DNA from: Chiloscyllium plagiosum
Taxonomy: Eukaryota
Reading direction: 5' to 3'
NCBI RefSeq assembly: GCF_004010195.1
Contig: NC_057747.1
Location: 12,483,673 to 12,547,672, forward strand
DNA: 64,000 nt
Shown here: in pieces, positions 1,415-64,000 of the stretch
How positions within the stretch are numbered: position 1 is the first letter of the stretch
Layout of the letters: every line of letters begins with the position of its first letter
Notes under the pieces: generated by a model
The model's input: only the letters and a program-made list of their open reading frames with translations
What the model was told of the DNA's origin: nothing
Database searches by the model: none
Program-made: the position numbers and the translations under genes

Positions 1415-1778
1415 ATACATTTTATTTTTAAATTGTGCTCCTTGCTTCTGTTTCTCCTTAGTTCTGATTAAACAGCATCAAACTAAAACATTAATCTCTC
1501 TCTCTCTCTGTCTCTTAAAGTTACTTTGACCTGCTGAGTTTTTCCGGCTTTAATATCTATCTACAAATTGGTTTGACAGTAAAGACCCGCAACTCTCCAT
1601 TATATGCAGAGGTTAAGTCACTGCTTTTCCCCATCAGGGTTTTATTATATCTAAACCTTGCACCTTCTATTGAGAGAAAGAAGGTTTAAAATTTAAAGGA
1701 AAAAGTAGTTTGGCAATCAAAATACTTTATGTAATTCTATTTGAAAATTTTCAAAATTGATTGACAGATTTCTGTTGG

Positions 1779-1994
1779 AGGAGAAAGTGAGGTCTGCAGA
1801 TGCTGGAGATCAAAGTTGAAACTTTATTGCTGGAACAGCACAGCAGGTCAGGCAGCATCCAGGGAACAGGAGATTCGACGTTTCGGGCACAGGCCCTTCT
1901 TCAGGCCCTTCCTGAAGAAGGGCCTGTGCCCGAAACGTCGAATCTCCTGTTCCCTGGATGCTGCCTGACCTGCTGTGCTGTTCCAGCAATAAAG
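1779..1994. mobile_element. Fold-back PLE-terminus element, family A
   Basis: Perfect 84-bp inverted arms 1822-1905 / 1911-1994; 13-bp direct repeat agatttctgttgg at 1766-1778 and 1993-2005. Confidence 0.85.
1909..1943 (+). ncRNA. Minimal hammerhead ribozyme motif (mirror copy on - strand at 1873-1905)
   Basis: TTC-CTGAAGA-A-GGGC(CTGT)GCCC-GAAACGTC-GAA: core boxes, 4-bp stem II, short stem I and a GUC cleavage triplet. Confidence 0.65.
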
Positions 1995-4672
1995 ATTTCT
2001 GTTGGGTAAGGGCTTATTGTTGAAGCAAATTTACATTTAGTCCATCCTGTAGAATAAATGTCCTATATTTTTATATAGATTGTCATGGGTATTTTTAAAA
2101 TACACTGTCAGGTTTTGGGTATTTCTGCTCAGGCCAGCATTTATTGCCTATCTTTCATCGTCCTTGAGAAGGTGGTTATGGGCTGCCATCTTGAATCACT
2201 TTAGTGTGATTGGGGCCGGAGGTCCAGGTTATTTTTCTCACAGTGACAGTGAAGGAACAGCGATATATCTTCAAGTCGGGCTGGTGAGTGGCTTGCAGGA
2301 GAACTTGCAGGTGGTGGTGTTCCCTTGTATCTGCTGCCCCTATCTTTCTAAAAGTAACAATAATGCAGTGATCCCACTGTCAAGGAAAGGCTGCCAGCAT
2401 TCTCAAAGATCCATCCCACCCTGGCAATGTTTTTCTACAACCTCTACCATCGGGGAGAAGGTACAGAAGCCTGAACACACGCATCAGCCGGTTTCGTAAC
2501 AGTTTTTACCCTACTGTTGTTAGAATACTGAATGGACTCACAAACTCTTAACATTCGCCTATACCTGTGTTTTTGTTTTTGCCACTGTTACATATATTTA
2601 CTATCTATGCTACTTTGTGATCTGTCTGTATTGCTCGCAAGACAAAGCTTTTCACTTGCCTCAGTACACGTGACAATAAATTCAATTCAATTCACCAACA
2701 CCAGCTACACTGACTTAGATGGTTTTCTTAAATGAAAAATACTGTGAGATATTGTTCTAAAATCGATCAGGATGCATTTATGTTTAATCAGTTAATGTCA
2801 GGGGTGAAAGCCCTGGTCACCCTAAGACTGCACACATAAAGGGAAAGGGTAGTATTTTGAAGAATGAAAATCTGTTGCTATCAACTGAATCAAGATAATG
2901 TTTAAGAATTTTGTAGATTTTCCTTTTGTGATACAGAGCAGAAGAAGTGTTCAAAATTGTCTGGAGTCTGAGGAAAAGGGGAAAAATTCTTTCAACCATC
3001 AGGATAGTCAATAATAAAAAGCCCCAGATTTAAGGTAGATGGCGAATACAGCAGAGGGGTTATGAGGAATGTTTTAACATAGTGAGTTATGATCTCCAGT
3101 GCACTTCCTGAGGGGGTCATAGAAACAGATTCAATGATAACTTTCAAAAGGAAACTGGATAAAGACATGGAAAGAAAGATTTGCAGTGTTTTGGAAAAAG
3201 AACAGGGGAGTGGTATTAATTGGGTAGTGCTTTCAAAGAACCAGTATAGCTCAGTGGGCCAAGTAGCCTCCTGTGTTATGGGATTCTATGCTATCATCCG
3301 AGTGCACTATTGCTTCAGCTCCTGATGCTTAAACAGATTTTCCTCATATGCACACACTTTCTCACTGAATCAACCTGATTTTGTTTGTTCCATAGCCCAG
3401 GGACACCTGTGGAGTCCATATATTGAAATATTAGCTTCAAACACAAATTTCACTGCTTTGACTGAATGTTCTTGTTGCCTGTTCAGGTTAAAGTCATGAG
3501 CTGTCAGAACATTTGTAATTTTCACCTATGATAACATCTGTTTGAAAACACTAAGTGTAATATTAAATCACTTAGTTGGACAACTCGTTACGTTGAACAC
3601 TACAGCACACAGATAGGTTGTTCTGTCCAAGCAATGTAGCCAATGCTCCACTTAAACCTACACTCGTTCGATTTACTTCACCTCAGGACATGCCAATACA
3701 TCCATCTATTCCTTTCTCTCTCTGGTCCTTAGCTAACTTCCTGTGAACTACAAGTCAAGCTTTATGCGGTACTGAGTTCTGCATTCTCACAACTCTTGAT
3801 AAAAAATAATTCTCCAGAAATCCCTTAATACTAAGTCTTATATTTATGGCCTTTAGTTTTGGACTCTCTCAGATATGGAAATATCTCTGTTGTATCTCAT
3901 AAATACTAGTTGGACTCCAGCTTCTACTAACACAATGACAGATCCAATTGGCATCAAATGTTCCAAGTACCAATAAGGCAGTTATACTCCACATTCTGCA
4001 TGAGGAGAGTTTTAATATTGCTCCAATGAAAGAAATACATTACCACAATTTCCCTTTATCAATATTTTTTAAAAATGGAGCAATTCAAATTCTGTAGCGA
4101 AGTACATCTGGAAGTGGTCAGTATGTACAGTCTTGGCTTCTTACCAGATACAATCTAACATCCATCAGAATCCTGCCAAATTTATAAAAATAACTTTTCA
4201 TATGGTCTGCTGAACTGTCTGTAACATCAAACTTTAAGAGAATTAGCCACATTTATGCAATGTTGCCTTGTGTTCACGATGGCATATTTGCAAAGGCTAG
4301 CAGATAGGAAACCCAGAAGGGACTGGTGGATCATTTAGCTTTCTCAGAGCATTGAAAACGTGGAGGTTGATGGAAACAGCACTTATTTTTAAAGATAACT
4401 TTGTAACAATTCCATATATTAATCAGTTCCTACCACAACATAGCCGTAATTTGCAAACTGACATTACCGCAGCAAAAAAAAAACCATAAATACACTGCAG
4501 TTTGATTCTTATCTGAAACTGTTATAACTCATAATCTACTATGCTGTCTAAATCTATTCAACGCCATAAATGAGTGATGTGTCTATGAACAATACTAAAG
4601 CACCGATGAACTTCCTAAAGAGACCGATGATTGTAGCTGTGGTAGAGCCACTGAGCACCGCTCTCTGGGGTC

Positions 4673-6515: not shown

Positions 6516-7108
6516 ATTTTATAGAATTACTGACTCACTGGATTCAAAACATTAACTCTAGCTTCTCCTCACAGATGCTGGTGAGTTTCACCATCAATTT
6601 CTGTTTCTGCTTCAGAATTTCCAATCCACGTTTGCAGCGTGAGTCAAAAATGAGAAAACCTACCTTTCAAAGTCACTTCTATAAATCCAGTAACAAACTT
6701 TCAGATGTTATTTTCTCCACATTTCTTGCTGTGTTGTTTCATCGTATTGTACTTTGTTTTGACTTCATTATCCCTCATACTTGCAACATTGACCTTGTAA
6801 TTCCACATTGAAATCAACCCAGTGGTTTAACTTAGTTCCTGCAATATTTGGTGTAGGAGGACATGGCAGAAAGTCAGTGAGCTAAAGCCAACAGATTGTG
6901 GACACAGGGATTGTGTCACTACCAACAACTGAGTGAACTTGCTTGGGGGTCAACTAAAGAAGTCAGAGACCAAAGGGCTTTTATTGCGCCTGGGAGAGAA
7001 ATTGCCGATATGTCCCTGATAGCAACTTTGGATAAAACAAGCCCACATTTTTTTACAGGGCTTTTATTAGCAATGGTTCCCTCTCCAATAAGCTGCTGTG
7101 TATTAAGT

Positions 7109-7325
7109 CATGAGGTGGTGGTGCTGGTGTTGGACAAGGGTAGACAAGGTCAGAAATCACACGACAGCAAGTTATAGTCCATCAGGTATATTTGAAATCA
7201 CAAGCTTTCACAAGCGCTGCTCCTTCATCAGTTGACTTCACCTGACGAAGGAGCAGTGCTCTGAAAAGTTGTGATTTCACATAAACCTGTTGGACTGTAA
7301 CCTGGTGTCCTGTAACTTCTGACTA
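7109..7325. mobile_element. Fold-back PLE-terminus element, family B (diverged)
   Basis: Inverted arms centred near 7233; 10-bp direct repeat tgtattaagt at 7099-7108 and 7326-7335. Confidence 0.75.
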
Positions 7326-10160
7326 TGTATTAAGTACCACAATATATACCTGGTCTGGTACACGTTCAGAAACAATAGCAATGAGATGCAGGCAAGAGAA
7401 GCAGTTAAATCATGAATTATTTTGGTTCAATTATTTTCTATACTTACTCATACCATCAAGTGTAGAGATTTTTTTAAAATTTGTTTTAATCACATTGACA
7501 TTCCTTTGTATAACCATTGTGCCATCACCTGGGCCTAATCTACACTCAATGGAAATTTCTCGCACCCTTCTCACTGTCCCTGCAACACAAAGTGAAAATG
7601 GTTAAAGACAGGCCAAAAATAAAATCGTACACTCATGACATTAACAGAATATTGCACTTTGAAACATTTGACATAACTAGAATTTATTGTATGAGGCAAA
7701 CGAATATAAAGGACGTACATGATGAAAACATTGTCGATTTCTTTCATATGCAGATGTATATTTCCACCATTGGACCTCCTGGCTAAAGAGTATTTCTAGG
7801 CACAACATTTGTGTTTCACAATGTCACAAAATATGATGGTTAGGTAATAGAGATGGAACTGAAGAACAATGAGTAACTCAGTGGACTACATAGACTGCAG
7901 ACTGAGCATTTAGATCGCTACTCAAATCTGTTATACGTGTTCCAAATACTGAATTAAATAGCTTCTCTCAAGTGAGAGTCCAGTTCGAAAAGGGGGAATT
8001 TTTGTTTCAGTTAAAGGTGAAATATTAGATTTAGTTTAAGTGCCCCTATTTTTGTAAGGGAGATAAAGATCTGTTATTGGAATGAGAGGTTACAAATGAT
8101 AAATTGTGGCTTTATTCACTAGAAAAGATTTTGAAGAGTGAATAGTGAAAGGTAGATTCTACAATAGGTACTTCCAAATCATGAGAACATGAACTCAGGA
8201 TTACCCACTAGAAGACGGGAAAGGAAATCTAGTGGGATTATTTCATAATGATTCAAAAATTAAATAGCTTTTGATAAACAACGAATGAAACAGAAACTGA
8301 AATGAATGAGACTCAATACTGAAAGCATATTTAGTTTTTATTATTCATTCAGGGGATGTGGATGTTGGGCAAAGTTTTTGAATGGTGGTGATCGGTCTCT
8401 TGAACTGTTGCAGTCCATATGCTGTAGGTGCACCCACAACGGTATGAGAGAGAGAGAGTTCCAGGATATTGACCCAGTGACAGTGAAGAAATGGTGATAT
8501 ATTTCCAATTCAAGGTGGTGAATGACTTGGAGGGGAACTTGCAAGTGGTGATGGTTTCATGCTTATGCTGACCTTAACCTTCTGCATGGAATTGGTCATG
8601 TGTTTGGAAGGTGCTGATTAAGGAACTTTGGTGAATTTCTGCGGTGCATCTTGACGATGGTAAAAACTGCTGTCACTGTGCGTCAGTGATGGGGGGGGGG
8701 TGAATGTTTACGGATTTGGTGTCAATCAAGCGGGCTGCTTTTTCCTGGATGATGTTGAGCTTTCTGAGTACTGCTGGAGCTGCACTCATCCACATGAGTG
8801 AGGAATATCACATCACACTAGTAACTTGTGCCTTGTAGGTGATACACGGGCTTTGGAGAGCCAGGAAGTGAATTACTAGCTACAGGATTCCTGGTCTCTG
8901 TCCTGCTCTTGGAGACACAACATTTATATAGTCAGTCCAGTTCAGTTAGTGGTAAGCCTCAGGATGTTGATATGTCTGACAGTCCTGGTCAAGGTATCTA
9001 TCTACAAGCCCAGACAGTAACACTCATCTTGAAACAATAAAAATACTACAGGGAATTTCAAATTGATGTAGTTAATATAGGAAGCAGAGGAAGAAAGGAG
9101 AAGAATTTAGGTCAGAAATTATCCACAAAGCATGTAAGTAACTATAGTGGCAAATGGTGGATTTATCACCAGATCGACACAATGAGATGCAATTGGGTCA
9201 TGAATGTTTTTACTTGAAGAATGATCACATACTTAGAAGTACAGTTTTCATTGGCCATAACATACCACTGTGACTAGTTGGTTCATGGTTTGGAGATTTT
9301 ACAGTTTCAGAAATAACAATTTATAATTTCAGTTGATCAACTCAGTTGTGCAAATGATTCACATCAGAATCAGTCCTTATGCGTTACACTATGGACAGTT
9401 TTAATCGACCCATTCAGAGGTGTTATGCTATCTCTCTGGAGCAGGTGGGATTCAAACCTGGGTCTTGTGATCCAGAGATGGAGACACCGACACTATGCTA
9501 CAAGAGGCCTCCTCACAACATTATTGTCCATTTAGACTGATCAACATTTAATAATATAGCATTGTTGTGCCACCCCTAATCGGTACAGTTCTCCTTTACG
9601 CCCTGCTTATTAATTCCATAAATCATTAAATCGTGTTATTTAATTTCTTGAGAATTTAACGGAACCATGCCTCAGGTTTCTATACCTGGGTCATCTGTTA
9701 CTGCAGTTGAGTACATCCACAAAGTTACAAAAAGACAGATAAAACAATCACTGTTCCTGTAGAACTCCCAAACACAATGAACATACTAATCATTTCAATA
9801 CATTCAATATGTCACATAAGGCACATTATGTTTGCATTTCCTGTGCAATGTTACCATTTTTAATGGAAATTACCTATCTGATCTCATCACACTGTAATTA
9901 CATATTTGCATGAGTAGATTGGTAGTATAGCCCCATTGGCAGGTACTATTATCACAATTACCTGGTCCAATTAGCCTCACTCGCTAATCACCAGCAGCCT
10001 TGCCTCATCCTGAGCAGCACATGCACACCATTCAGGAAGCAGATAAGAAGTTTGATATGTTCCTCACAAAGTTACTTTACAGCATTATAGTCTGATCCTG
10101 TGACATGTCTCAATGCATTCGTTCAATTAACTGTAAAAATTGACAAGTGTTGATCTATCT

Positions 10161-10361
10161 CATGATTTGGAGGTGCCGGTGTTGGACTGGGGTGTACAAA
10201 GTTAAAAATCACACAACACCAGGTTATAGTCCAACAGGTTTATTTGGAAGCACTAGCTTTCGGAGCACTGCTCCTTCATAAGGTGATTGTGAAGCTCCAA
10301 AAGCTTGTGCTTCCAAATAAATCTGTTGGACTATAACCTGGTGTTGTGATTTTTAACTTTG
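10161..10361. mobile_element. Fold-back PLE-terminus element, family B
   Basis: gatttggaggtgccggtgttggactggggtgtacaaagttaaaaatcacacaacaccaggttatagtcc... followed by its inverted copy. Confidence 0.8.
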
Positions 10362-11169
10362 ATCTCAGTTTCTTGACAGCACCTGCTGATGGTATTCTGC
10401 CTTAAATCAGGTTGTAGGCTAATTCGCACAGAATTAGCTTAAAGCCAATTGCTAAGGAAGAATTGCTGAGCTGGTTTCCCACTGCCTTATTATCTTGGGA
10501 GACAAGTGAGCTGTAACCGTTGCTGAGGCGCGACAGCGACCATTTACAATGTGAGGCTTCCAACCCATTAACCCCACCGGGCCGAGATCTAAAAGGCCCC
10601 TCACTGTGGTTCTCTATAGTGGGTGCGAACACACAAACCCTGTGGGCTCAGACCTTTATCAACGCAGTTATCACTAAGTCACTGCCATAGCTACGGAAAT
10701 CCTCTGTAAAAATATATTATTGATCGGTATTGTAAAACACCGATCTTTCTTCCACTTCTATTGTGTAAATAGAATTATTTATAAAGTGTAACAATGCAAT
10801 GCTAACGCCCATATGGTTGATCCCGATTTCCTAAGGAGTGGGCTCAAATTTAAATTACCAACCTGTCATTTAGTCTAGCAAAGAATGCTGAATCCAAATT
10901 CATTATTTCATGCACCCATTGATGATGGCAGTTTTGATCTGAATCTAAAACACAGCGGTGCAGTCAATTCATCGCCCATTCTTTTCTCTTTGTGTAAATG
11001 CTTAGGGATTTTTTTTACTCGGGTTCATTATTATTGAATAAATCAAGCGTGGCATTTTTCTTTTGTCAATCGTGTCTCTTTTTGTTTTTAGAAATGCCAC
11101 TACCCCCTGTCTTTGTTGGACAATTCTCATATCTCCATTCTTAAATCAAGAGCCCAGTATATCACTCAC

Positions 11170-12548: not shown

Positions 12549-13349
12549 AATTTGATGAAGCTGAGACAGTTATTATTCCAGGTGCAGAGTGAAGTGTCTT
12601 CCCTCCGACCCAGATGACCAGACCTGGCCAGGTCAACAAAGAGACCTTTCCTGTTCTCAATCACACGACAGCATAATATACTGTTTAGAAAACCCAGCGT
12701 GAGAACAGGAGCTGTATGTTGTGAAAGGACATTGACGGAAGTCATTGCATTTGGTTTCCCTGTCCACCAACATCCACCCATCCAGCAAGAATGAGAAAGA
12801 TGCTACAAACTTAGATTATTTGCCCTCGTGCAACTTTCTGGTGTCTATATGTGACTTTGTGGCAGAATGTTCATGCTTATTTGTTCTTATTACAGCTTTT
12901 ATCTATTGGTGAGGTCAGATATTATAGAATGACAAAGGGTCTTTTGGCTCATTATGCCCCATTTATTTCCAAGACTTCAGCATAGATTTTTCTGGGCTGA
13001 GACCCACATTTGGAGGGGCAACTAAAAAGAAAATTAGTTGCTCTTGCATTATGGCAACCCCCAAAACCTTTACCAAATTGTTCTCGTTTTCAAATATAGC
13101 TCCTGCTATTTTGACATCTCTGTGAAGTTCAGACATCACCAGTTGGGAGTTGGCCTTAATTTTTCCCAGCATATAGTCAGGTATCTCTTGAACTCATCCA
13201 ACATACTGTACACTAGGAATGTTACTGTTTGCGACATAAAGTAAATCACATTGGTTACGTATCCAGGCAGAATTACGTAAATGTTAATAAAGCAAAGTGG
13301 GACTGTTTTTGGCATATTTTAAAAGAGACCTGACTCAAGGAAGTGATTA

Positions 13350-13599
13350 GATTAAAGTAGTGCTGGAAAAGTACAGCAGGTCAGGCAGCATCCGAGGAGC
13401 AGGAAAATCAACGTTTCGGGCAAAAGCCCTGCATCAGGAATGAGGCTGGGAGCCTCGGGGGGGTGGACAGTCTCCCAGCCTCATTCCTGCCCAAAACATC
13501 GATGTTCCTGCTCCTTAGATGCTGCCTGACTGGCTGTGCTTTTCCAGCACTACTCTAAACTTGACTCTAATCTCCAGCATCTGCACTACCCACTTTCCC
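13350..13599. mobile_element. Fold-back PLE-terminus element, family A
   Basis: Inverted arms; 16-bp direct repeat ctcaaggaagtgatta at 13334-13349 and 13600-13615. Confidence 0.8.
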
Positions 13600-13756
13600 C
13601 TCAAGGAAGTGATTATTTCTTCTTCATTCTGTTATTGTCCCACAAATAAAACAAAGAACTGCAGATGCTAGAAATCTGAAACAAAGCCAGAAATTATTGG
13701 AGAAACATAGCAGGTCTGGCAGCATTCGTGGAAAGAAAGCACAGTTAACATTCTAA

Positions 13757-14260: not shown

Positions 14261-14859
14261 TCAGTTCAGAACCCCAAGGCCAGATCTTGTTGAGAAAGGA
14301 GACCTGAACATGTAGCTGAGTGGCATTCGTAATAGGGGGGGAAATACATAGCTGGCACAGTCAAAAGACACCCATTACATCCCAAAGCATAACCCCCTCT
14401 AACTCCCTAACAGTCGTCCCAGACAAACAGTCTCACAGTAAGTATTCTCCCCTAATCCCATGTGTGTTTAACAGCAGCATCCACTCCGAAGACTCAGACT
14501 CCACCACTGCAGAAGCCACCTTCCCTCCCCCCATCCCTGGCATACAGAAAACTCAAGCACCATCATGTCATTTGAGCTGTTGATCTGAAAATGCCTCAAC
14601 TATTGGGGAGGGGAATCACTAGCTATGTGTTTGTGGTACTTGGATACATTTAAAATCAACAATATCAAAAGGAAATTCGATGAGTTCTTGGGGGAAATAG
14701 ACTATGGAGCGGGCGGGGGTGGAATAAGACCAATTGGATTGTTCAATAGAATGCCGGTATGGATTTTATGGGCTGAAGGGCCTCTTCATTGTTGTTGTGA
14801 GTCTAAGAGTAGTGTTCACATTAGATTGCTCCTAGTCAATTTGAAAGCATCAAAATTAT

Positions 14860-15015
14860 AGTGGTGCTGGAAAAGCACAGCAGGTCAGTCAGCATCCGTG
14901 GAGCAGGAAAATCGACGTTTCGGGCAGGAGCCCTTCATCAGCCCATTATTCCTGATGAAGGGCTCCTGCCCGAAATATCTAATCTCCAGCATCTGTAGTC
15001 CTCACTTTCGCCTAG
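14860..15015. mobile_element. Fold-back PLE-terminus element, family A (right arm internally deleted)
   Basis: Intact - strand core CTGATGAAGGGCTCCTGCCCGAAACGTC at 14914-14941; + strand core at 14952. Confidence 0.75.
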
Positions 15016-15377
15016 ACCAGTCGAAAGCATGTCATCCCAGAAATGCCACAATGATGCCACAGGGGAAAGATTGAGGCAGCATTTTTTCACACAGTTAGAA
15101 AAATATGGGGACATGTGAAAGCAGACAACATGGTTTAGGCGAAAATCCGAACGTGAAGGAAATAGCCACACTCCAGTGAAATAAGAAAACAGTCCAAAAA
15201 TAAAACTGGAATCAGGCGGGTTGGCGTCAATAAAACAAAACGACAGGTTGTGACTCTTTAATGCAGGTACTCTCTGATCAACCTCTTCCACAGATTTTTT
15301 TTTTGTTACACATCTGGACCAGGTGAGATTTAAAATACGGGTCTTCTGTCTCAGAGATAGAGACTCTATCGCAGTCA

Positions 15378-15660
15378 GTCATGATTTGGAGGTGAGTGCT
15401 CTAACTCCCGATGAAGGGCTTTTGCCCGAAACGTTGATTCTCCTGCTCCTCGGATGCTGCCTGACCTGCTGTGCTTTTCCAGCACCTCTCTAATCTTGAC
15501 TCTGATCTCCAGCATCTGCAGTCCTCACTTTCGGGCCTAGATGATTTGGAGGTGCCGGTGCTGGACTGGGGTGGACCAAGTTAAAAATCACACAGTACCA
15601 GGTTATAGTCCAACAGGTTTATTTGCATGCACTAGCTTTCGGAGCGCTGCTCCTTCAACA
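15378..15660. mobile_element. Family A PLE terminus (15395-15540) nested in a family B terminus
   Basis: 14-bp duplication atgatttggaggtg at 15381-15394 and 15541-15554 brackets the inner element. Confidence 0.8.
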
Positions 15661-16200: not shown

Positions 16201-16584
16201 AGAAATTAGTAAACTAGCTTTTAGTAAAATTGCATTGCACCCGTTTACAACGAGCTCCCTGGTTTGCTGATGTCTTTGTTATTGATGTGTTTTGTTTTAA
16301 ATCAAATTGAAAATAAATGTGCACCAGTTGCTTTAACACACCACCTCCCCTCTCTCCCCCCCCCCCAACAAAAAGAAATTATCATTTTTAATGTTGTCCC
16401 TGTTCCTGCAACTAGGCCTGGCTTTTATTAAGGTTCAGTGTCTGAATGAGGCTTTAACTCATTCAAACCCGACCACTTGTAGAAAGTTGAATGAGGGGTA
16501 TACTGGGGCAGACAGAACCACCCTTTGCTATCATTCGCTGTTGAGACCAGTTTATTTTTGTTGAGGGAGTAGCCCACAGCTGCT

Positions 16585-17445
16585 ACAAGAGGTGTAAAAC
16601 CTGCACCCACACCTCCCCCCTTCCCTCTGTCCAAGGCCCCACAGCACCTTCCACATCCAGCTGAGATTTTCCTGCACATCCAAACACCTCATCTACTGTG
16701 TCCGTTGCTCTCGATGTGATCTCCTCTACATCGGGGAGACAGGATGTGAACTGGCGGAATGTTTCAGGGAACGCCTCTGAGACACAGGCACCAAACCACC
16801 CCACCACCTTGTGGCCAACCACTTCAACTCCTCCAAGGACATGCAAGTCTTGGGCCACCTCCGCTGCCAAATCCTAGCCATCTGATGCCTGGAGGAAGAA
16901 CACCTCATCTTCTGCTTTGGGACCCACCGACTACATGGCATCAACATCGATTTCAACAGTTTCTTCATCTCCGCTCCCCTTTCCTTATCCCAGATCTAAC
17001 CTTCCAACTCAGCACCGCCCTCATGACCTGTCCCACCTGTCCATCTTCCTTCCTGCCTATCCACTTCACCTTGGAAATGTGTTGCTGGAAAAGCGCAGCA
17101 GGTCAGGCAGCATCTAGGGAACAGGAGAATCGACGTTTCGGGCATTAGCCCTTCTTCAGGGCGTTTCCTGAAGAAGGGCTAATGCCCGAAACGTCGATTC
17201 TCCTGTTCCCTAGATGCTGCCTGACCTGCTGCGCTTTTCCAGCAACACATTTCCATCTCTGATCTCCAGCATCTGCAGACCTCACTTTCTCCTCAAAGAT
17301 ATCCACTTCACCTTCCCCTCTGACCTATCCCTACCATCCCTCACCTTCATCTACATGAAGGTAGATGCCCAGCTTCATCTACATCTTCATGCCTTACCCC
17401 CCAGCCCCACCCCCACCCTCCTATTTATCTCTCAGCACTCAGGTT
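16585..17445 (+). mobile_element. Degenerate Penelope-like element, GIY-YIG endonuclease region and 3' tail
   Basis: LIYCVRCSRCDLLYIGETG at 16688-16744 (GIY-YIG motif with the CxxC insert typical of PLEs), followed by ..VANHFNS..; stops and frameshifts present. Confidence 0.85.
17073..17299. mobile_element. Fold-back PLE-terminus element, family A, inserted in the older PLE (ECHS1 intron 1)
   Basis: Perfect 89-bp arms 17072-17160 / 17167-17255; 15-bp direct repeat tatccacttcacctt at 17058-17072 and 17300-17314; hammerhead-like core at 17168-17195. Confidence 0.88.
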
Positions 17446-33147: not shown

Positions 33148-33310
33148 CAACAGGTTCGCTTGCTCTCCATGGATGGTGGCTGACTCGCTACGATTTCCAG
33201 TATTATTGATTTTCAGTTCAGATTCCAGCATCTGCAGTAATTTGCTCCTACCCAATGTTTAGTGACCTTGATGCACTGTAGCTGCTTAACAGTTCGGTAC
33301 TTTATTTCAG

Positions 33311-43925: not shown

Positions 43926-43966
43926 TCCATATTGTCTGTATCTGAAAACCAGAAACGAGGATGGAT

Positions 43967-44505: not shown

Positions 44506-44621
44506 ATCTTTGAACCCAGATCTGCTCAGAGGTAAGGACATTGCCAGTGCACCACAAGAGGCCGTTGGCACACTGTTATATCAATCTTGCCTAACCAGAA
44601 TCAGATCCATCATTTCCTCTT

Positions 44622-47261: not shown

Positions 47262-47628
47262 GCAGAAAACAAACGCTGGAGATCACAGCAGGTCAGGCAG
47301 CATCCATGGTGTGAGAGAGAGAGAGAGAGAGAGCAAGCCAACATTTCAGTTCTAGATGACTCTTCTGATGAAGAGGAGAAAGTGAGGACTGCAGATGCTG
47401 GAATTCCGGATGAAGGGCTTATAACTGAAATGTTGACTGTCCTGCTCCTCGGATGCGGCCTGATCTGCTGTGCGTTTCCAGCGCCACACTTTTTGACTCT
47501 TCTGATGAAGAGTCTAGATTCAAAACATTAGCTCGCTTTATGTCCATGGATGCTGCTTGACCCGTTGTGATCTCCAGCCTGTTTTGTTTTCTGTTCAGAT
47601 GCTAGCAGCTGCAGTAATTTGCTCCTGC
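47262..47628. mobile_element. Family C fold-back element with a family A element (47376-47493) inserted at its centre
   Basis: 19-bp duplication tgactcttctgatgaagag at 47357-47375 and 47494-47512. Confidence 0.75.
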
Positions 47629-48035: not shown

Positions 48036-48122
48036 TTGCAGGAGGCTCAGTGCCTGGTGGTACAGTGGTAATGGGTTCGTATCCGGGGACCCAAGCTGTG
48101 AGTTTGAATCCTACCAGTGTGG

Positions 48123-48337
48123 ATGTAGGTTTGCTCGCTGAGCTGGAAGGTTCACTTTCAGACGTTTCGTCACTATACTAGGTAACATCAGTGAGTCTCC
48201 GAAAGAAGCTTTGTCCGGAGGCTCACTGAGGATGTTACCTAGTGTGGTGACAAAATGTCTGAAAATGAACCTTCCAGCTCAGTGAGCAAACCTACACCCA
48301 GAACCTCAACCTGAGCTACAAATCTTCTCAAACCTCA
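48123..48337. mobile_element. Fold-back PLE-terminus element, family D
   Basis: Inverted arms around about 48208; 13-bp direct repeat cctaccagtgtgg at 48110-48122 and 48338-48350; degenerate core CTGAGGA-T-GTTACC..GGTGAC-AAAATGTC. Confidence 0.75.
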
Positions 48338-48818
48338 CCTACCAGTGTGGCAGCTGGTGGAATTTAAATTTAAGTTAAAAATCTGGAATATAAAGACAGT
48401 CTCTACAACTATTGTCACAACTATTGTCAATTGTTGTAAAGACAAATGCCCTGAAAGGAAATCTATCATCCTTACCTCAGTATGGCTAACAGCATCTGGG
48501 ATAATTGTCTTTATTAGCCAAGACATTGAATGCAGCAGCAAAGAGGTTATGATGGAGCTGTATATAACATTAATCAGGACATAGCTGGAATTTTAAAAAT
48601 ATATTCAATCTGGGATGTGGCCATCGCTGCCTGGGCCAACATTTATTGCCCGTCCCTAGTTTCTCCTTGAGAAGGTGGGGGTGAGCTGCCTTCTTGAACT
48701 GCTGAAGTCCACCTGTTGTAGGTTGGCTCATGACGCTACTAGCAGAGAATTCCGGAATTTTGATCCAATGACGGTGAAGGAATGGCGATATATTTCCAAG
48801 TCAAGATGGTGAGTGGCT

Positions 48819-51810: not shown

Positions 51811-54644
51811 GAAATGGATATTTGATGACCTGGAAAGGACACGATGGGCCGAAGTACCTCTTTCCGTGCTGCGAGAGCTCTCTGACTCTAGTGGAAGCAG
51901 GGGAAACAGCATAACCGCGTATAGGACCGGGGAAGGTGGTGGGTATGAAGATGCTGTTTTATACTGCAGTACACTCCATGAAAATGCAGCAAATCTGAAG
52001 TAGTGGGAACTATCCTGTTTAACATAGGCGACTCTGAATAGCTTTGTCAACGTCGCGGGGTTTGACCATTTTTATTTGACAAGCCCATTCTCTCTTGGGC
52101 TGGAATCCAAGTTTGCTTTCTGGATGACCAGATGCAGATGTTTTGCTGTTTGCCTCTTGTCGGCCCTTGTAGGTAGATTGATTTGGCCGAAGAAGGTCTC
52201 CTTTAGTAAATGCTCGCACTGACCAACCTGTGGGATCCCACTCAGGTGGCAGGACAGGTGTTAAGGAGTATGGGGTGAATTGACCCCCTCCCCTAGCATC
52301 GGTTTGAAACCAAGTGATCAAAGCGAGGAAAATAGACCTGGATAATACATTTCTAAACGGAAGATGCATTTTGTTTGCAAATCTGAGACAGTTTGCAATT
52401 CATTTAAAGATTGGTTTTATTTTAATGATCTTTTAAAGTTGAAAATTCGTTCGATCGAAGTCATTCATTTCAAACCGATCTGTTCATTTTTTTAAAATCT
52501 CCATCCGGATAAAATTGACAACCTCAGAGTCTGTCACCTCCTACCCAGTAGGTACCCAGTACTTCTGATCGCCTTGACCAATCTCACTGGAGAGAAAATA
52601 AACTTTATTTCCAACTCTCTTTCCCTCTCTTCACCCTTCTCTCCCATTTCTCGACATTATCCTCCTGCCCTACTCGCCCGTTCTCCCTTCCCCTTAAATC
52701 CTGGGGTAATTGATTTGAAAATAAATAACTAAATAATCGATTTCCATCTTCCAGCTGACGCTTTCAGTCTCGGAAGATGCTGGAAGGAGACGGGGGAGTG
52801 GGTCATTCTTAAAAGCGTCATGGTTTGCTCCCGGCTCAGTCAACACCACAAAGCATTCAGGGAAAAAAATGGAGTCGTCCCCACTTTGATGTTTATCCCA
52901 TGTTAGTTAAAGGTCAAAATAATAAATGTATACCCAAATTGAAGCGTTTAGGAAGGACAATGAAGGCAAAATGTTACATTCTGACTGCGTCTGCCTCTCA
53001 GAGCGTGATAAACGCGTTTGAAAAGTGGGACCAAAAGCTGAACAGCGTGAGTCCCTGGCCGAAGAATAGGGCTTTGATGACAATTTAGACAATGCTGGCA
53101 CCTTCAAGCCGCATTCATCTTTCTGTATCTGTCTCTGCATCTCTCCACACCGCCAGCTGCAGCCTTCATTTGCAGTTCCATTCACACACACATAGAAATT
53201 CCCTTAAATTACAACCCCAGCCAAGGTTGGGGGGGAAGAGAGAGAGAAAAAAAACCCTCCTTTGCATTAGCAACAGCTGCACGTTTTGGGAATTATTTCA
53301 TGCCCCCCACCCCGACTGGAATTATTGGAAATGTTAAAAAAAAAGTATTTTTTTCTAACGGACTCACTGTCATGCACATCAAGTATATTGGGGAGGGAGC
53401 TTCCCATGATTTAATCAGGGGCTTTGGAAATGCATTGATTTTGGACAAAATTAGTCAAATGGTCGATAACACTCCCAAGATTTATTTTAAAAATTCCAGC
53501 AAATGACTGAGCAAAAGGCACAAGGGTAATTTAAAGTGAGTGCACATTTAAATTTTAAATCTGTTAAGTTCGTATACAGGGCTTGGAATTGGGTGAGATG
53601 TATGAGGTTGTGTTGGTGCGTTATAAAGAAGCACTTACCCCGTTATTTTTGGGTCTACGAACTGACAAGTCAGTACAGATACTCGTTCGGAATCTGCATG
53701 GATTATTTATTGTCGATGTCCTAAAAGAGAGATTCCGCCTCCCGACCCTGTTTCAACCTGCTCTTTCGAATCAATGCTACCGAAAGCTCTTCAGAAAACC
53801 TCTCCCCTCCCCGTCATCAGCCGGACCAGATTAATTGCTGTCCTTTCCATCGGCCCTGTCACAGGCAGAACGGGACCTGAAACCAGGTTACACCGGCTTT
53901 GTCTGCACAATAATTGGAAGAAATTCAAAACAAAAATAAGTGCATGTCGCACAGGATAATGGAGAAGGAATTAAATGTAGGAAGCGAGAGGCAAAGAGAG
54001 AAAGCAAGTTGAAAACAATTGGCAGGATTTCATTTTGAATTCCTACAACTTTTCGTTTGTCACTTGATGGGTGAGGCAGCGATGCACAGAGTAGGAATTT
54101 AATGAATGTATGATTTTTTTTTAAAAGAAAAGCTAAGCATTTTTTTTATTCCAGTCTCTCTATTGACTGAGGGAGTTGACGCGTGTGATTGGAGGCTATA
54201 TTGTCATTCGTTGGTCAGTAAGAATGTAAGAACTGCGAGCCCGTTTGAAGAAGTCTAATTGATTGAGAACCGCGAATATGGCTTACTGATAAATGGTTGA
54301 CATCAAAGACATAATAGAGAGGGGCTCCAGAGAGTCACCTCAGCCCCCAGTGGGCACACCATTGGCAAAACAACAGAGCCATCGGGGGCGAAATGAATGG
54401 ATACTTTTTAACAACAAATTAGCCGAATAATCATCGAAATTTTCTCAAACGGCGATATTAAAACGCCAGCCTTTTAAAAGCTGCCGCCCGGATGAATTTT
54501 TTTTTTAAAAATGGCATTCGCTCGGTCAATTGGCAACGCGTTCGCTACTTTTTAAAAAAATATTTCCTCCAATGTTATGTCTCACCCACTTGTTCTGCAG
54601 TTTCCCGTTTGTTGGTTTGTAATTAAGCGGCCATTTCTCAGGCT

Positions 54645-54847
54645 TAAAAATCACACAACACCAGGTTATAGTCCAACAGGTTTAATTGGAAGCACTCTAG
54701 CTTTGGGAGCGAAGTGTGGACAATCACCTGATGAAGGAGCATCGCTCCGAAAGCTAGTGTGCCTCCAAATAAACCTGTTGGACTATAACCTGGTGTTGTG
54801 TGATTTTTAACTTTGTACACCCCAGTCCAACACCGGCTCCTCCAAAT
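54645..54847. mobile_element. Fold-back PLE-terminus element, family B
   Basis: 13-bp direct repeat catttctcaggct at 54632-54644 and 54848-54860; core CAC-CTGATGA-A-GGAGC..GCTCC-GAAAGCTA-GTG at 54725-54759. Confidence 0.85.
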
Positions 54848-55794
54848 CATTTCTCAGGCTGAACATTTGTAGTTTAGTTTCATAATTGGTTTACCAGCTC
54901 ACTCAAATTTCTAGACCCCCGGGATTCATTCTCTTTAAATGTATTTTTTTTTCTCCCAGGACGATGTGTAGAGTACAGAGTACATTTTAGCTTTATCCTT
55001 AAGTCTATTTTGCCAATAAGCACATGGCTGTTTAACAACTATATTTATGAGCAGGTGTTACAGCAGACCTCAGCTGTACACCACCTCAGAATGCAACTTA
55101 AAGTATTCAAATAAATCAAAAGGTGTGAATGCAGAAATAGACTTGTTAGAGAAACTCAACATGTCTGGCAGCATCACCTGTTGAGTTTCTCCAGCAATCT
55201 CTTTGCATTCCGCCTCTCACAATAACCAGCGACAACTTCCACAGAAGTTGCAGATAATTTAATTCAACGTTATGGCACATCAGCAGAAGTTCTGTTTGAA
55301 ATAGGCTCAGGTTTCCTTTCTGTTTTGCACCAAAACCGTCGACATTTCTTTTGGTGATGGTCAAATTGAACTCACCGCCTCAGCTGTCGCTAGGACCTCC
55401 TCACCCTCAGTGAGACTACCCCGTCCTCCCTTCAGATGTGCAAATGTAAAAAAATATTGACAGCACAGTTAGAATAAAAGAGGAGGGAGAGAGAGAGAGA
55501 GAGAGACCGTTCTCGTGGTGAGGTTTGAGGGGGGTGGTTTTGTGGGAAATGAAGTCTCCCTCAGGAACTGGCGGCAGATTCGCTTCATGGCATTCCTGAG
55601 AAATGCTTTCAGGTCACTCGGGGAAGAGCCATTTAGAGAATGTAATGCCCAGTATAGGAGATATTTCTGTCTGACTCCTGTACCACAACAAAGTGACACT
55701 TGCCCGACCCTCTTCTCCCCGGTGATTTAATCCACTTTAACTGTCTGTCAACAATAATACTGTTTAAAAACTATCAGTCCTGCCGACTCCCTGT

Positions 55795-55982
55795 CACGTC
55801 AGGCAGCATCCGAAGAGCCGGAAAATAGACCTTTCGGGCAAAAGCCCTTCATCAGGAATCCTCATTCCTGATTCCTGATGAAGGGCTTTTGCCTGAAAGG
55901 TCAATTTTCCTGCTCCTCGGATGCTGCCTGACCTGCTGTGCTTTTCCAGCACCACTCTAATCTGCAGCACCCACTTCTGCCT
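55795..55982. mobile_element. Fold-back PLE-terminus element, family A
   Basis: Inverted arms, both carrying the variant GAAAGGTC. Confidence 0.75.
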
Positions 55983-56282
55983 AGTCCCTGTTAGTCCTGC
56001 TTGATGCCCCACGAATGAGGAGCTGCAAACTAAGTTGGACTTGCTTTTTTCTGAACCTTCTTTGCAGCTGTAACTTTGTATTCCTCCCTCTGTTCAATCA
56101 GCTTTGTATGTCAGGACACTGCAGGCAAAACAAAACTTCTCCCTGTCCCTAGGTACATGTGACAATAATAAATTAAATTGCTATCCAATTAACTCTCAGC
56201 ATTGGAGCCAGGCAGTCAGAAAGCAGTGAAACCGTCAGGTGCTTTTACATTTTTTTAATATATTGCCCCTTATTTTGAGAAT

Positions 56283-59080: not shown

Positions 59081-61309
59081 TTCTTGCATGCATGGCTTAC
59101 ACATGGGGGGGACACTAACCCAAATCAGAGGGAAATGGCAACATTACCGACAGACTAGTCTATGCAGCCATGATGATCAGTGGCTGGAATGGCTTGACAG
59201 CAGATGCCAACACTGTAGACAACAATCCACAATGACATCTGTGAACAACCTCACCGCTGGAAGAAATGGCCTCACATGTATTGGTTTCTTTGGCCAAATG
59301 TACACTGTTTGAAGCCACTCTTTCATCGTATGTCTATCATATAACGTGGGAGAATGAATGTCCCACTGCCACCAAATAACATAGGCACATACACAAAAAA
59401 AAATTGTGCACAGGAGCAGGTGAATCTGGGGGCTCAGATGATATTGATAAAACATTTAAATCTCACGGTATTGATTCAGAGACTTCCTACTGAAGATTGA
59501 GATAATGAGGAGCTTTTCTTTTCTTGGAAGGCTGTGAGTCTTGGAAATCTTTTCCACTCAAAATGTTGGAGATAGGGGGCAATGTAATATGTTTTAAGGC
59601 AGAGCCCGATAGATTGTTGATTAAAGAGGGAGCCAGTGGTTACAGGGCGAGCTAGGAATATGATGCTGAGACCACAATCCGGTCAGTTGAATGACAGTGC
59701 AAGTTAGGGGAGGAAAATTGCTTATTTCTGCTCCTAAATGCATGTTCATATTTTGATGTTTGCACAGTTCATGCTGTGATCTGAGTCCGTTAACTATTTC
59801 AGTTATTTAATCATCTAACATTTGCAAAGGAAGCTGTGCTTTCAATTGCTCTGGACTTTGGAATTCCCAATCTCCAACTTGATCTCATTTTCCTTCTGTA
59901 AGACATTCCATAAAACCGACCTTTGTGACTACTTTTGGTCAACTGATCAAATATCTCCTATGTGGCTCATGTCAAATTTGTTTTGTAATGCTCCCGCAAA
60001 GTACTGCCGAAGGGCCCGTTCCTGTGCGGTACAGTTCTATGTTCTACTTTGGGTGTGGTATTGCCTAAATATTAGGTGTTGTTAAATAAGTAGCAATGCA
60101 GACAAAAAGCAATTAAAAGATCCCACAGTTGTTAAACAAATAACAATGTTTAGCTTCATTGAGTGGGAGCTTGAATGTCTTTCATTAAGTTTCAGTTTAA
60201 TGTTCACTCGCAGGTATTTATTGCTTCGGATATAACATGTTGGAAATACAGATGTAGTCACAAAATGTTTGAGCATTTACGATTGATGTGTAGACTGTTA
60301 TGAAATGTAAGACAATAAAGTGATGCTTTGGTGTACCTGATTGATCTTTGATGTAGAAGGGTGTAATTTGACAGGAGATTATTTTTTCACAATCATCAGG
60401 CAAACATATCTTAGAGACATTTCTGTAACTGCTGTAATGAATATTCAGTCAAAAGTTTAATCACTTGTTTCACAGAATAAACTCATGTGTCCATTCATGA
60501 TTTATTTTACTGCTTCAGTTTGCTGGCGGAAGTGTTTAAGTTGAAATTATAATGCCACAGTATTTATAATTCTGTCAGAAGTGGTTGGAACAAGCAGGCT
60601 CTACATCATTGACACTGAACAGTATGTGAAATTCCACAATCTAGACATCAGGGAAGCATTGCTATAATCTGGAATGTACAACCTTTTTTTTCATGGAATT
60701 CTTTATTCTTTCATAGGATACAGGAGTCATTGGCCAGGTCAGCATTTGTTGTCAGTTCCTAGTGGCTTGCTAGGCCACTGTAGAAAACAGTTAAGAGTCA
60801 ACCACATCTGGAGTCACATGTCAACCGATCCAGAAAAGGAGGCCAGATTCCCTTTGCAATTAGTGAACTGCTTGGGTTTTTACAGTAATCACTGACAGTT
60901 GTCATGGTCACCAGTACTGAAACATGCTTTATATTCCAGACTTATTAATTGCATATTCAAGATTAGCTTTCCAAAGGAATGGGATAAATACTTGAAGGGG
61001 AGAAAATTGCAGGGCTGTGGTGAAGAGCAGGGGAGTGCAAGATTAAAAAGGTGGTCCACACATGATAGATCAAAAGGCTTCCCCCTGGTATGCTGCAAGA
61101 TTCTAATATGGTGTTTGCAAGATTCAACAATAAAACTGCCACTTGTCTGTCATTTGGTTCTGAATTTTACAAATATGTTGACATCTGTTGACACCAGCTA
61201 CAACTGGATATAAGTATGATGCAAGTCTGAGTATATGATATAGTCGTTCTGTAAATTGTTCTTCCATCTATCTGTGAACAGGTTTCATTCCACAGGTAAG
61301 CTTATTCCT

Positions 61310-61504
61310 GATTTGGACCGGGGTGTACAAAGCTAAAAATCACACACCACCAGATTATAGTCCAACAGGTTTAATTGGAAGCACTAGCTTTAGAGTGCTG
61401 CTCCTTCATCAGGTGGTTGTCACCTGATGAAGGAGCAGTGCTCCGAAAGCTAGTGCTTCCAATTAAACCTGTTGGACTATAATCTGGTGGTGTGTGATTT
61501 ACGT
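61310..61504. mobile_element. Fold-back PLE-terminus element, family B
   Basis: Inverted arms around about 61418; core at 61424-61452; 8-bp direct repeat ttattcct at 61302-61309 and 61505-61512. Confidence 0.85.
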
Positions 61505-64000
61505 TTATTCCTAGCTCACATTTGCTAACATAAAGGCTAAAATTCTAAGGGGACAATATATTTCACCATGATAAGGTTTCAGCACTTCAATTTTAATGAT
61601 TTTTATGAACTAGTCACTAGAAGATTAGCACATAATACTGTTTCATGAGGTGGCACACATAACAAGAAACCATGAAATTGTTTCCACAAATGGCAATTGA
61701 CAATTACAAGATTAAAGAATAAATCTGTACTGACTGAAGTTCCTACAAGTGAACAACCAGTCCCTTGGCAAAGTTCCCCAAGTTATTATAGTTTCATCAT
61801 GGGATACTTCAAATTGTCAGCTTCCTGTGTAGGGAAGGATGAACTTGCTCCCTATCTTTATTCATCCATTTCCTCGGTTAGTATTATTTTAAAGAGAATC
61901 CTTTCCCCTGTCAATACCTTTCTCCCAGCCCAAATTAATGTATGTTTTAAAAAGAGCCAATTTAACCATTGGTTCTGGAGTAAACAAAATAGTGGGTCTA
62001 TGAGTTATGAAATGCAAAAATAAATAATAATGAAATGCATGTACACATATATTAGAAATGAGAAGGGAGTCCAAAAAGGATAAATGTTTAGAAAGACCCT
62101 GAGTCCCATGAAGAGTAGAAAGTGGCATGTTGTGGGGTGATGGCAGTAGTGTTGATGTTGTTCAGTGGTTGTGTTTGAGGTACTTAGAATTGCATCTTAG
62201 CTGGAATTCTTTTGTCTGTTTCCTTTTAATGCTGGCTCTAGCCCAGATCGATCTCTTTTTTCCCCCAGCATGTTCATAATCTGAGATAGCTCCAAGGAAA
62301 TTACAGCTCAGTTTGAAGTGCATTTCACCCTTTGAAGTCCTTTGAAGCGTCTTTGACATCCGTCAGGTGCAACATTCCACAAATCTGTTGAGGCTGGGGA
62401 TGACCCTCTGAGGCAGTCACTGAATTACATTACTTAGAATTTACATTCTCAGTAATTTTTTTGGCTGTATAGTCTCTTCCTGAAAAAAAAACATTATTAT
62501 TAGAAGTTCAATATATCTGTTTATGATCTAGAGTTGTAGTCCATCTTTATGATATGCTTTGAAATAAGATAGCACCAGGATAATTTGTATCTGCTGTCAA
62601 CATCAGTGACACTGTTGTTAACTTCACAACATGTTTAATGAAACGAATGTGAATGAAAGGTGAAGGAAGTTGGTAGAAGAAACAGGGCAGGAGTGTGATA
62701 GAGGGTGGAAATTGTTTTATGGAGTGTATTGTTTTGACCCTGAATGCTCTGCCTGGAATGGTTACATCAGGAGGAGTGAAAGAGAAGTGGCTAAATACTA
62801 CAAAAGATAAATTTTTCATGAGTACTTTTTATGTGAGACTAAATGAATTGTGGTTTCAAAGAGTCACAATGTGTTGAATGGTCTCCTCTGCTGCAAGATT
62901 ATATGCTTCTATCAAGTGAGGTAGCACTAAGCTACAGAATTAGAGTGAACTTTTAACTTTATTTGTACAGTTATAGTGAATCCGGCAGGATAATACACAA
63001 AGCCATAACTGATTGACCCATGCATAATTATATTAAATTATCATATCTCATGGTTAGCCATGAGATATTCTCTTTGTAACACACATTGTAAGTTTTCCAT
63101 AAAGTAAAGCAGCTAATTAAGTAAATAATATATGTATCAGTATTTTGGTAGCTGAAGATTAAAACAAATTTACGACATTTTATCATTCTCATTAATGGAT
63201 GCAGGTTTGCATGCTGAGGGAGCAACAGCTCAGTGAGCAAACCTACATCCAGAACCTCAACCTGAGCTACAAATCTACTTAATTCTCGCTATTCCCCTTA
63301 ATTCCGTTCAATGTATGGTTATATTTTCTATTTTTTAAAAATTAGGATCACTGTTTGATTGGTTAAGAGCCCAAAAGCTCAAGACAACATCACAATTGAA
63401 TCAGAAGGCAAGTTAAATCAAAAGTGCTGATCTGGCATTACCAAGTCTAGGTGGCAACAAGTTATAAATAATGTGTAGAAGATTGAATAGGTTCATTTTT
63501 GTCCAGAGTTAATTCACAAAAAAAAAACCTTACATTCGTTCTAAGCCATAACTTGCCAGCAAAATGCTTCAGAGCAATTCACGTATTGAATTGTGTGTGG
63601 GATGTAGTAACCAACAGTTTGTAAGTAAGAGGGTAATGAAAGAAAGAAGGCAATTTATTATAACAGTGATTACGTAAAATAATGTTTTCGAAGCACAATG
63701 ACTCATGCAGGTGTTTAACTATCAAGACAAAAGGCGCATTCTCTTAATTATTCTCTTTTAAGCATCTCCACTCTACTTTTATTAGAATTCAAATTGTGTG
63801 GAAAATCTTTTACCTTAAAGAAGTCAAAAAAGAATTGGCTTACAGAAGTCTCATTTATTCTGGAGGGACTTGTCAGAATCATTCCTTTTTCCAATGTCAT
63901 ATGTCAAAATTCCATCTTGAATTCTGTAGTCTGTGAAAAATACTGCGAAATTCTGGGTGTGCCCAAAAAATCTCCCATTGAATACAACAGCACAATAACA

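Follow-up and report, generated by a model that had tools for sequence, protein, structure and literature searches.

Head-to-head insertions of Penelope-like element ends in a 64-kb shark window and a sharp stop site at the edge of their predicted hammerhead

Endonuclease-bearing (EN+) Penelope-like elements (PLEs), such as Neptune and Penelope/Poseidon, leave 5'-truncated insertions, inverted pseudo-long terminal repeats (pLTRs) and a tail of 30-40 bp on one side only (PMC8557442, PMC3846280, PMC2377424). The completion of PLE integration, the formation of inverted ends and the role of the hammerhead are described as open in the PLE papers. We describe herein a window of 64,000 nucleotides from the shark Chiloscyllium plagiosum (contig NC_057747.1, positions 12,483,673 to 12,547,672), in which PLE ends and remnants occupy 34 intervals and 6655 bp, or 10.6% of the non-N bases. 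The short palindromic elements in this window are ends of PLEs, not miniature inverted-repeat transposable elements (MITEs), and neither as elements nor in their ribozymes do they depart from known kinds. A first-pass annotation of the same DNA had suggested that the short form may be under-described; hammerhead pairs on opposite strands, tails and inverted copies truncated at the 5' end have already been published, and what is added here is a countable record of insertions together with a sharp, unexplained stop at the ribozyme edge. With a probability of roughly 0.7, each of these fold-backs is an abortive EN+ PLE insertion, an event of its own, in which twin priming on one RNA gave two cDNAs that were end-joined head to head.

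The shark insertions share with the EN+ PLEs an inverted 5'-truncated copy, a one-sided tail, a hammerhead in the terminus and a GIY-YIG endonuclease at the C-terminus, and share with Neptune a CX3CxxC linker. The target duplication is variable in both, being 8-10 bp in the rotifer PLE paper and 8-19 bp in the shark window. The difference is that here the terminus alone (76-364 bp) dominates and most arms stop in one 21-nt zone, whereas a hotspot at the hammerhead edge is not mentioned in the accessible text of PMC8557442, PMC3846280 or PMC2377424.

The minimal type I hammerheads of metazoan PLEs were described by Cervera and de la Pena in 2014 (PMC4209133), with several families per genome and thousands of copies in coelacanth and Xenopus; no shark species is named in the accessible part of that paper. 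The motif treated below has the same short helix I, the same extra base between positions 9 and 10.1, the G10.1-C11.1 pair and the palindromic positions 15.2-16.2. Schistosoma carries dual hammerhead motifs 100-700 bp apart on opposite strands, whereas the two cores of a shark fold-back usually lie less than 25 bp apart, and helix II has 4-6 bp in the shark window against 7-8 bp in Schistosoma (PMC4209133). Non-LTR retrozymes are likewise small, non-coding and PLE-derived, with a type I hammerhead (PMC7229834; bioRxiv 10.64898/2026.07.22.740005). However, retrozymes are head-to-tail tandem repeats with ribozymes on the same strand and a circular RNA, while the shark elements are head to head, on opposite strands and dispersed; a tandem array of termini, by which a retrozyme would be recognized, does not occur among the 21 entries listed.

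The anole PLE, Poseidon of Anolis (PAc), was studied in vitro by Frangieh et al. 2024 (PMC11167929). Its protein nicks and extends both target strands, using uncleaved RNA as the template and two internal start sites that bracket the tail; the start region lies 111-118 nt into an open reading frame (ORF) that begins at stem II, and the ribozyme needs the protein. The distance of the start site from the core is similar in the shark elements. PAc belongs to another clade, showed no strand bias in vitro, and the accessible main text does not treat inverted products. Compared with PAc, a preference for ATT targets was not visible in the shark window.

Structure of the two-armed insertions

The census rested on an inverted-repeat scan, self-BLAST and a seeded census of the window. 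Element boundaries, arm ends and junctions were placed manually, and positions within an element are counted from C3 of the hammerhead core (the C of CTGA). Seventeen two-armed insertions were found (A, 8; B, 6; C, 2; D, 1), 76-364 bp long and about one per 3.7 kb of non-N sequence, plus one old tailless inversion at 55127; the earlier estimate of more than a dozen short fold-backs, at about one per 4 kb, was sound. One-armed or longer copies occur beside them. A fifth and older terminus family, E, which the first-pass annotation had overlooked, is present at nine loci. It is related to A and C, with which it has the downstream motif of family A in common; its hammerhead is decayed, and several of its copies likewise begin near C3.

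Each two-armed copy has the same order: target duplication, inverted arm without a tail, junction, sense arm with a tail of 35-45 nt, target duplication. All 17 two-armed A-D insertions carry the tail at one end and one only, the old E inversion at 55127 being tailless; two independent choices of end would yield this outcome with a probability no higher than 0.5 per insertion. Of 24 hand-bounded elements, 13 are flanked by an exact repeat of at least 8 bp (8-19 bp), including 11 of the 17 two-armed insertions, compared with 2.1% of 576 random position pairs (tolerance of +/-8). All eight direct-repeat pairs cited earlier proved exact: 1766/1993 (13 bp), 7099/7326 (10), 13334/13600 (16), 17058/17300 (15), 36568/36748 (9), 48110/48338 (13), 54632/54848 (13) and 61302/61505 (8). 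An assembly artefact was rejected, given that target duplications are present and arms have diverged to 81-93% identity. No target-site motif was found across 16 insertions, except that 12 of them have an A five positions before one nick (-5), a count uncorrected for multiple tests.

The outer ends lie at about +111 to +131, and the inner start sites mostly at +74 to +95, with one at +57. At the inner start site, 1-3 nt of microhomology with the target was found in 9 of 13 cases as computed (p=0.002), or in 10 of 13 if the 47357 (47373) insertion, offset by a one-base indel relative to its reference, is included. The junctions differ in all 17 insertions; ten contain 3-13 nt of filler, five share 1-5 nt and two are blunt. 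In 6 of 16 insertions, 10 nt or more of the no-tail arm have no counterpart in the tail arm, so that this arm was not simply copied from the tail cDNA; the reverse is true of 2 of 16. The extreme case is the family A insertion at 47357..47512 (-), with a 19-bp target duplication, whose arms do not overlap at all, the tail-only arm covering +97..+126 and the no-tail arm -4..+92.

Certain variants are common to both arms of an insertion: 12 at 1766, 12 at 17058 and 7 at 7099. The fold-back at 1766..2005 (-) belongs to a young subfamily of A; its tail arm (1779-1905, -) and no-tail arm (1909-1992, +), with cores at 1904 (-) and 1912 (+), are separated by 3 nt of filler and are 100% identical over 84 nt. 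A young one-armed A copy at 38955..39066 (38967; -), with a possible extension of helix I to -8, is 98.8% identical to that no-tail arm, and therefore one source subfamily gave both forms. The young A fold-back at 17058..17314 (+) also has arms that are 100% identical, and its 12 common variants set it apart from most of the family. Arms at 14843 (14850), 55788 (55795), 61302 and 38955 (38967) have lost internal sequence, in some cases at short repeats.

In otherwise unrelated A, B and D sequences, a stem of 7-9 bp forms between the body, at +44 to +50, and the tail, at +85 to +102, and encloses the inner start site (e.g. 17168-17299, 54728-54847 and 48226-48337). It recalls a stem-loop of the anole element and is individually weak, with a shuffle P<0.05 in 5 of 18 arms.

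The hammerhead motif and the link to an endonuclease

The pattern CTGANGA, extra base, stem II, GAAA occurs 15 times in the window, compared with a mean of 0.86 (maximum 3) in 100 dinucleotide shuffles; sites that also contain the palindrome number 10, and none of the 100 shuffles has one. The layout is kept across A, B, C and D while the helices differ in sequence. Stem II is GGGC/GCCC in A, GGAGC/GCTCC in B, GAGTC/GACTC in C and GTTACC/GGTGAC in D, as first listed; stem I is ATTC with GA(A/T)T in A, CAC/GTG in B, AAGCT/AGCTT in C and TCA/TGA in D; and the palindrome of stem III is ACGT or AGCT. Helices I, II and III all change between families yet stay paired, as seen over four to five families. 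The non-CpG divergence, pooled, was 6 of 242 sites in the core against 83 of 1226 downstream (p=0.008; A alone, p=0.11), or 3.0% (A) and 1.8% (B) against 6.9% and 6.7%, respectively. In contrast, loop II and N7 appear free, with 25 of 98 sites diverged (loop II, 27% in A and 22% in B). Four A arms and one B arm, deleted or too short, were left out of this test, and the arms are not independent. This layout, with a conserved core and a free loop II and N7, matches the signature published for PLE hammerheads (PMC4209133); as judged from its sequence, the motif is a minimal type I hammerhead of the PLE type and a predicted ribozyme.

Several results speak against so uniform a hammerhead. Covariation within family A is absent, with 460 of 500 shuffles reaching its score; the apparent covariation is between families, as the first-pass annotation had it for stem II, and the excess conservation of the core that it named as a check is supported. 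A covariance model built from A alone found C at an E value of 1e-5 and five B copies weakly (E, 0.05-0.8), and did not recover D. Intact hammerheads, NUH triplet included, are seen in single arms of A, B and C; in D, represented by a single fold-back, neither arm passes the pattern scan, and the hammerhead emerges only by combining two decayed arms. A strict-pattern core is present on at least one arm in only 6 of the 17 two-armed insertions. An Rfam scan gave no hammerhead match among nine hits at E<=1 (eight sub-threshold microRNA hairpins and one small nucleolar RNA).

Within a fold-back, the two cores are found on different strands and are antisense to each other. In predicted folds, the transcript of a whole insert is a hairpin of -74 to -198 kcal/mol in which the core is mostly paired, with a mean unpaired probability of at most 0.15 in 9 of 12 cores and of 0.43-0.59 in the other three. 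As the second arm is antisense and pairs with the sense core, the modelled product of a fold-back is a long hairpin transcript, not a ribozyme dimer in cis. An intermolecular double-hammerhead fold can be drawn, but in each of nine copies its energy exceeds that of the best dimer by 6-14 kcal/mol. Dimer cleavage is reportedly the subject of Lunse et al. 2017. We infer that the hammerhead is a real, selected ribozyme of the donor element and is cargo in the fold-back copies. At 55788-55993, a change that breaks the palindrome of stem III is found in both arms; either a defective source RNA was inserted, or the arms were homogenized later.

Family A is connected to an endonuclease by a 537-bp 5'-truncated PLE copy (44622-45158; 44611..45169 with its 11-bp target duplication, -). 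An endonuclease remnant at 44830-45194 (-), with the C-terminus of GIY-YIG, continues through the 3' untranslated region (UTR) into a family A hammerhead (C3 at 44746) and tail, all inside the 11-bp duplication. This contiguity argues for a PLE origin of family A, whose parent, from the sequence, is an EN+ PLE. Within the remnant, about 50 nt are duplicated in inverted orientation (44962-45019), and one of the junctions has a short microhomology; the duplication resembles the outcome of a template switch made while the copy was inserted.

A second and older PLE remnant, at 16578..17443 (+), holds a CX3CxxC linker (16581-16604), the C-terminus of the GIY-YIG domain, interrupted by a frameshift and stop codons, and a 3' UTR. 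It has no terminus of its own, is the host of the 17058 fold-back, and is 60% identical to the long family A copy over 442 columns. With X at two stops, it matched 594 proteins in a full HMMER search; ten of ten homologues scanned, from the best 150 listed of the 594, carry GIY-YIG and/or RVT_1, and a 737-aa homologue carries RVT_1 and GIY-YIG in PLE order, the homologues being identified solely by Pfam domains. Pfam gave no match to either endonuclease remnant itself, a word-indexed homologue search found no longer relatives of the remnant, a PDB sequence search gave no meaningful match, and no remnant of a reverse transcriptase (RT) was found in the window. A CX2-5CxxC linker before the endonuclease is a Neptune criterion (accessible text of PMC8557442), and the linker of the 16578 remnant, the one that could be read, points to a Neptune type. 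This remnant stops at the equivalent of -13, a position within the loop that the upstream hairpin forms in family A, has no hammerhead and no tail, and showed no target duplication by eye.

The tail end of family A (e.g. 15520-15540) resembles a 3' splice site (CTCAC, pyrimidines, TAG), with another candidate AG at -10/-9, and the tail of family B (e.g. 10160-10170) ends at an ATG. Either feature may mark the start of the parent ORF.

The stop site and the mode of insertion

The inner ends of 27 of 41 arms fall within -15..+5, at 0.075 per nt compared with 0.0036 downstream and 0.0037 upstream, an approximately 20-fold hotspot at the 5' edge of the hammerhead. When only tail arms were counted, i.e. 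one arm per insertion, 15 of 25 fell within this zone, a number reached in any 21-nt window by 0 of 20000 constant-hazard simulations. The 12-nt piece at 29034 (29045) and the nine E loci were left out of this count. The one-armed copies at 15381 (15397), 38955 (38967) and 15541 (15546) share the stop zone. In family A, a 7-bp hairpin ends at -4/-5, where most A arms stop. Neither a report of the hotspot nor a paper on twin priming in PLEs was found in the literature searched, which did not include most subscription papers or any Repbase reports.

According to the proposed mechanism, the RT/GIY-YIG protein would make staggered nicks 8-19 bp apart. One nick, the first, would prime a cDNA at the outer internal start site at the tail end (approximately +111 to +131), and the other would prime at the inner site (approximately +74 to +95) on the same RNA, usually with 1-3 nt of microhomology. 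The outer polymerase would then either halt at the inner primer, as in the 47357 case, or displace the inner cDNA and follow it. Synthesis of both cDNAs would break off at one shared position, where helix I of the hammerhead has its 5' edge, and host end-joining would unite the two cDNA ends, with microhomology or filler. Twin priming on one RNA is suggested by the in vitro behavior of the anole PLE combined with the anatomy seen here, and the 47357 insertion would be the clearest case of it.

Inversions of LINE-1 formed by twin priming consist of an inverted 5' piece with microhomology at the second priming site and an end-joined junction; the two pieces do not overlap, and the second priming site is free. 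In the shark elements, by contrast, the second site keeps a constant place close to the tail, and overlap between the arms is usual.

A number of points weigh against this mechanism. The data come from one window and from DNA only. The mean identity of arms is only modestly higher within than between insertions (A, 88 vs. 79%; B, 88 vs. 85%), and three of six family B arm pairs share no variant, which makes templating by two RNAs possible for some copies. The strict asymmetry between outer and inner strands is inferred here, whereas strands made by the anole protein in vitro show no difference in start site (accessible text of PMC11167929). Arms of unequal reach could also be explained by a later central deletion. 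B and D are tied to PLEs by anatomy only; no ORF remnant stands beside the B, C, D or E termini in the window, which also holds no full-length PLE copy; the PLE origin proposed by the first-pass annotation is supported directly for A through its GIY-YIG remnant. The upstream sequence is known for B and for A outside its young subfamily, the ends were placed manually, and family B has no upstream hairpin to match the one at which most A arms stop. Finally, sibling copies of the same source are rare in 64 kb, and the test against a self-copying palindrome has limited power.

In Drosophila, the 3' end of an intron maps to the 5' end of helix I (PMC4209133), and transcription starts 46 bp before that 75-bp intron. 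A tentative and, as a whole, rather doubtful account is that the template RNA has its actual 5' end in the stop zone, so that RT starting internally, some 80-130 nt away, runs off just past the hammerhead. Full-length copies would then need a jump to the far end of the RNA or a tandem read-through RNA, and a fold-back would result when this transfer failed and two strong-stop cDNAs became linked to each other instead. Two tail arms begin at most 1 base from the predicted cleavage site. In the family A fold-back at 36568..36756 (-), the tail arm starts at the site itself (+27/+28) and the no-tail arm at about -4; in the family C fold-back at 33036..33260 (33040; +), with an 11-bp duplication containing one mismatch, the tail arm begins 1 nt past the site and the core of the no-tail arm is intact (33142, -). 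These starts may be due to chance. Under the strong-stop account, they would be copies of self-cleaved RNA and a genomic trace of ribozyme activity in vivo.

Among the alternatives to twin priming, the one that survives best, though we regard it as improbable, is self-priming: a single tail-end cDNA folds back or switches template near the hammerhead and is copied back, after which the second arm is cut back to the inner site by the endonuclease. Identical arms, common variants and one-sided tails would follow directly; self-priming has been proposed for palindromes at inverted PLE junctions (accessible text of PMC3846280), and both the inverted duplication at 44962-45019 and the 12-nt piece at 29034 (29045) look like template switches. 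It does not readily accommodate the six no-tail arms with sequence missing from the tail arm, nor the non-overlapping arms at 47357, and extra deletions would be needed each time.

Slightly less credible still are discrete non-autonomous units, i.e. short palindromic or one-armed masters of about 130-230 nt that are transcribed and re-mobilized in trans by a PLE protein. The first-pass annotation had left the choice between such units and stereotyped truncation products; the latter fit, whereas the former do not explain why junctions match in no pair of the 17 or how the same subfamily yielded both a fold-back and a one-armed copy. Longer copies, moreover, extend into the 3' UTR and ORF, and a palindromic transcript folds into the hairpin described above, although a short one-armed sense master is conceivable. 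Nothing shows that the elements are copied as palindromes. The idea draws on the stereotyped length and high density of the elements, on a report that PLE termini suffice for mobilization in trans (PMC3846280) and on non-autonomous PLE derivatives (PMC8557442; bioRxiv 10.64898/2026.07.22.740005; bioRxiv 10.1101/596502).

Long perfect palindromes are unstable, and it is conceivable, if very unlikely, that the insertions were once longer palindromes and lost their middle afterwards through cruciform resolution, so that the arms now end near the hammerhead. While internal deletions are indeed seen in several arms, the one-armed copies at 15381, 38955 and 15541 share this stop, the short form is already present in the two youngest copies, whose arms are 100% identical, and central deletion would not favor one position across four families.

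We give almost no credence to the view that these are MITEs derived from a DNA transposon and resemble a hammerhead by chance: the elements are short, palindromic, numerous and flanked by duplications, but those duplications vary without a common motif, the ends are asymmetric in 17 of 17, the core is conserved with loop II free, and family A is continuous with a PLE ORF. For family A, a MITE origin is refuted by its asymmetric ends, variable duplications and ORF link, and the earlier view that these are not DNA transposons was correct. A MITE-like element in the same window (24047-24210) provides a contrast, having symmetric 28-bp inverted ends (left, TA; right, CA); we presume it to be of the Tc1/mariner type. 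MER6 is listed as a Mariner element (PMC5753468).

Other copies in the window and implications

The remaining family A copies are fold-backs at 13334..13615 (+), whose arms reach -15 and -31 so that the upstream hairpin of 6-7 bp is visible; 14843..15030 (+), with an 8-bp target duplication and an internal deletion of about 60 nt in the tail arm; and 55788..55993 (+), with a 7-bp exact flanking repeat. Beside these are a one-armed copy with core and tail, from about -4, at 15381..15554 (+; 14-bp target duplication) and, at 29034..29182 (-; 11-bp target duplication), a tail arm that starts in stem II plus the 12-nt inverted piece.

Family B fold-backs are located at 7099..7335 (-; 7-nt filler, arms 81% identical), 10150..10365 (-; tail arm to -13, no-tail arm from +16, 2-nt junction microhomology, 7-bp flanking repeat), 43720..43929 (-; 2-nt junction microhomology, target duplication not clear), 54632..54860 (+; intact core at 54728) and 61302..61512 (-; intact core at 61424). 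A short B inversion without a hammerhead lies at 45374..45466 (+), its tail arm starting at +76 and its no-tail arm covering +41..+86, with 5-nt junction microhomology. There are also a one-armed B copy from +4 at 15541..15657 (-), the tail of which hosts the 15381 (15397) A insertion; a B copy at 25526..25817 (-), whose core (25648) is intact and which extends 169 nt or more upstream, and for which no target duplication was found; and one with an intact core (39928) and a long CA-rich upstream region at 39400..40044 (+), of uncertain 5' limit and without an ORF remnant.

The second family C fold-back (47263..47626, +) is interrupted at its exact center by the 47357-47512 A insertion. Two other A insertions, 15381-15554 and 17058-17314, also lie within other PLE sequence; nesting of PLE into PLE (3 of 24 elements) was not above chance (p=0.48). 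Family D comprises the fold-back at 48110..48350 (+), decayed in both arms, and tail-bearing fragments at 1336..1397 (-; from +50) and 63226..63287 (+; from +49). The old E termini are at 928..1018 (-), 5733-5827 (-), 13644-13767 (-), 26516-26633 (+), 36864-36956 (+), 42308-42414 (-), 43438-43486 (+), 50650-50746 (-) and, as the tailless inversion, 55127-55210.

The window also contains the coding exon of Shadoo (SPRN; 4673-5182, -), whose ORF (4676-5128, -) shares 88% identity with the protein of the zebra shark and 81% with that of a catshark, and an exon of an enoyl-CoA hydratase (ECHS1-like) at about 18900-19060 (+). Shortly downstream of the latter, a CpG-rich 20-bp minisatellite of about 77 copies (19822-21368) runs into an assembly gap. 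An AT-rich inverted repeat at 30524-30658, with 34-nt arms and a 67-nt spacer, is unrelated to the PLE families. Other large repeat groups, at 27361-28002, 34986-35520, 51338-51812, 56280-56662 and related loci, presumably represent 3' ends of long interspersed nuclear elements and short interspersed nuclear elements; Pfam gave no informative match for three ORFs of these other groups.

Short palindromes of this kind resemble both MITEs and precursors of microRNAs, as the eight microRNA hairpins among nine Rfam hits illustrate, and run the risk of being misannotated. Some fold-backs may lie in introns, where they would put double-stranded RNA into host transcripts. At this density, a shark genome would hold very many dated two-armed products with countable start sites, stop sites and junctions, and such products would allow direct tests of twin priming on a single RNA and of the stop-site question.

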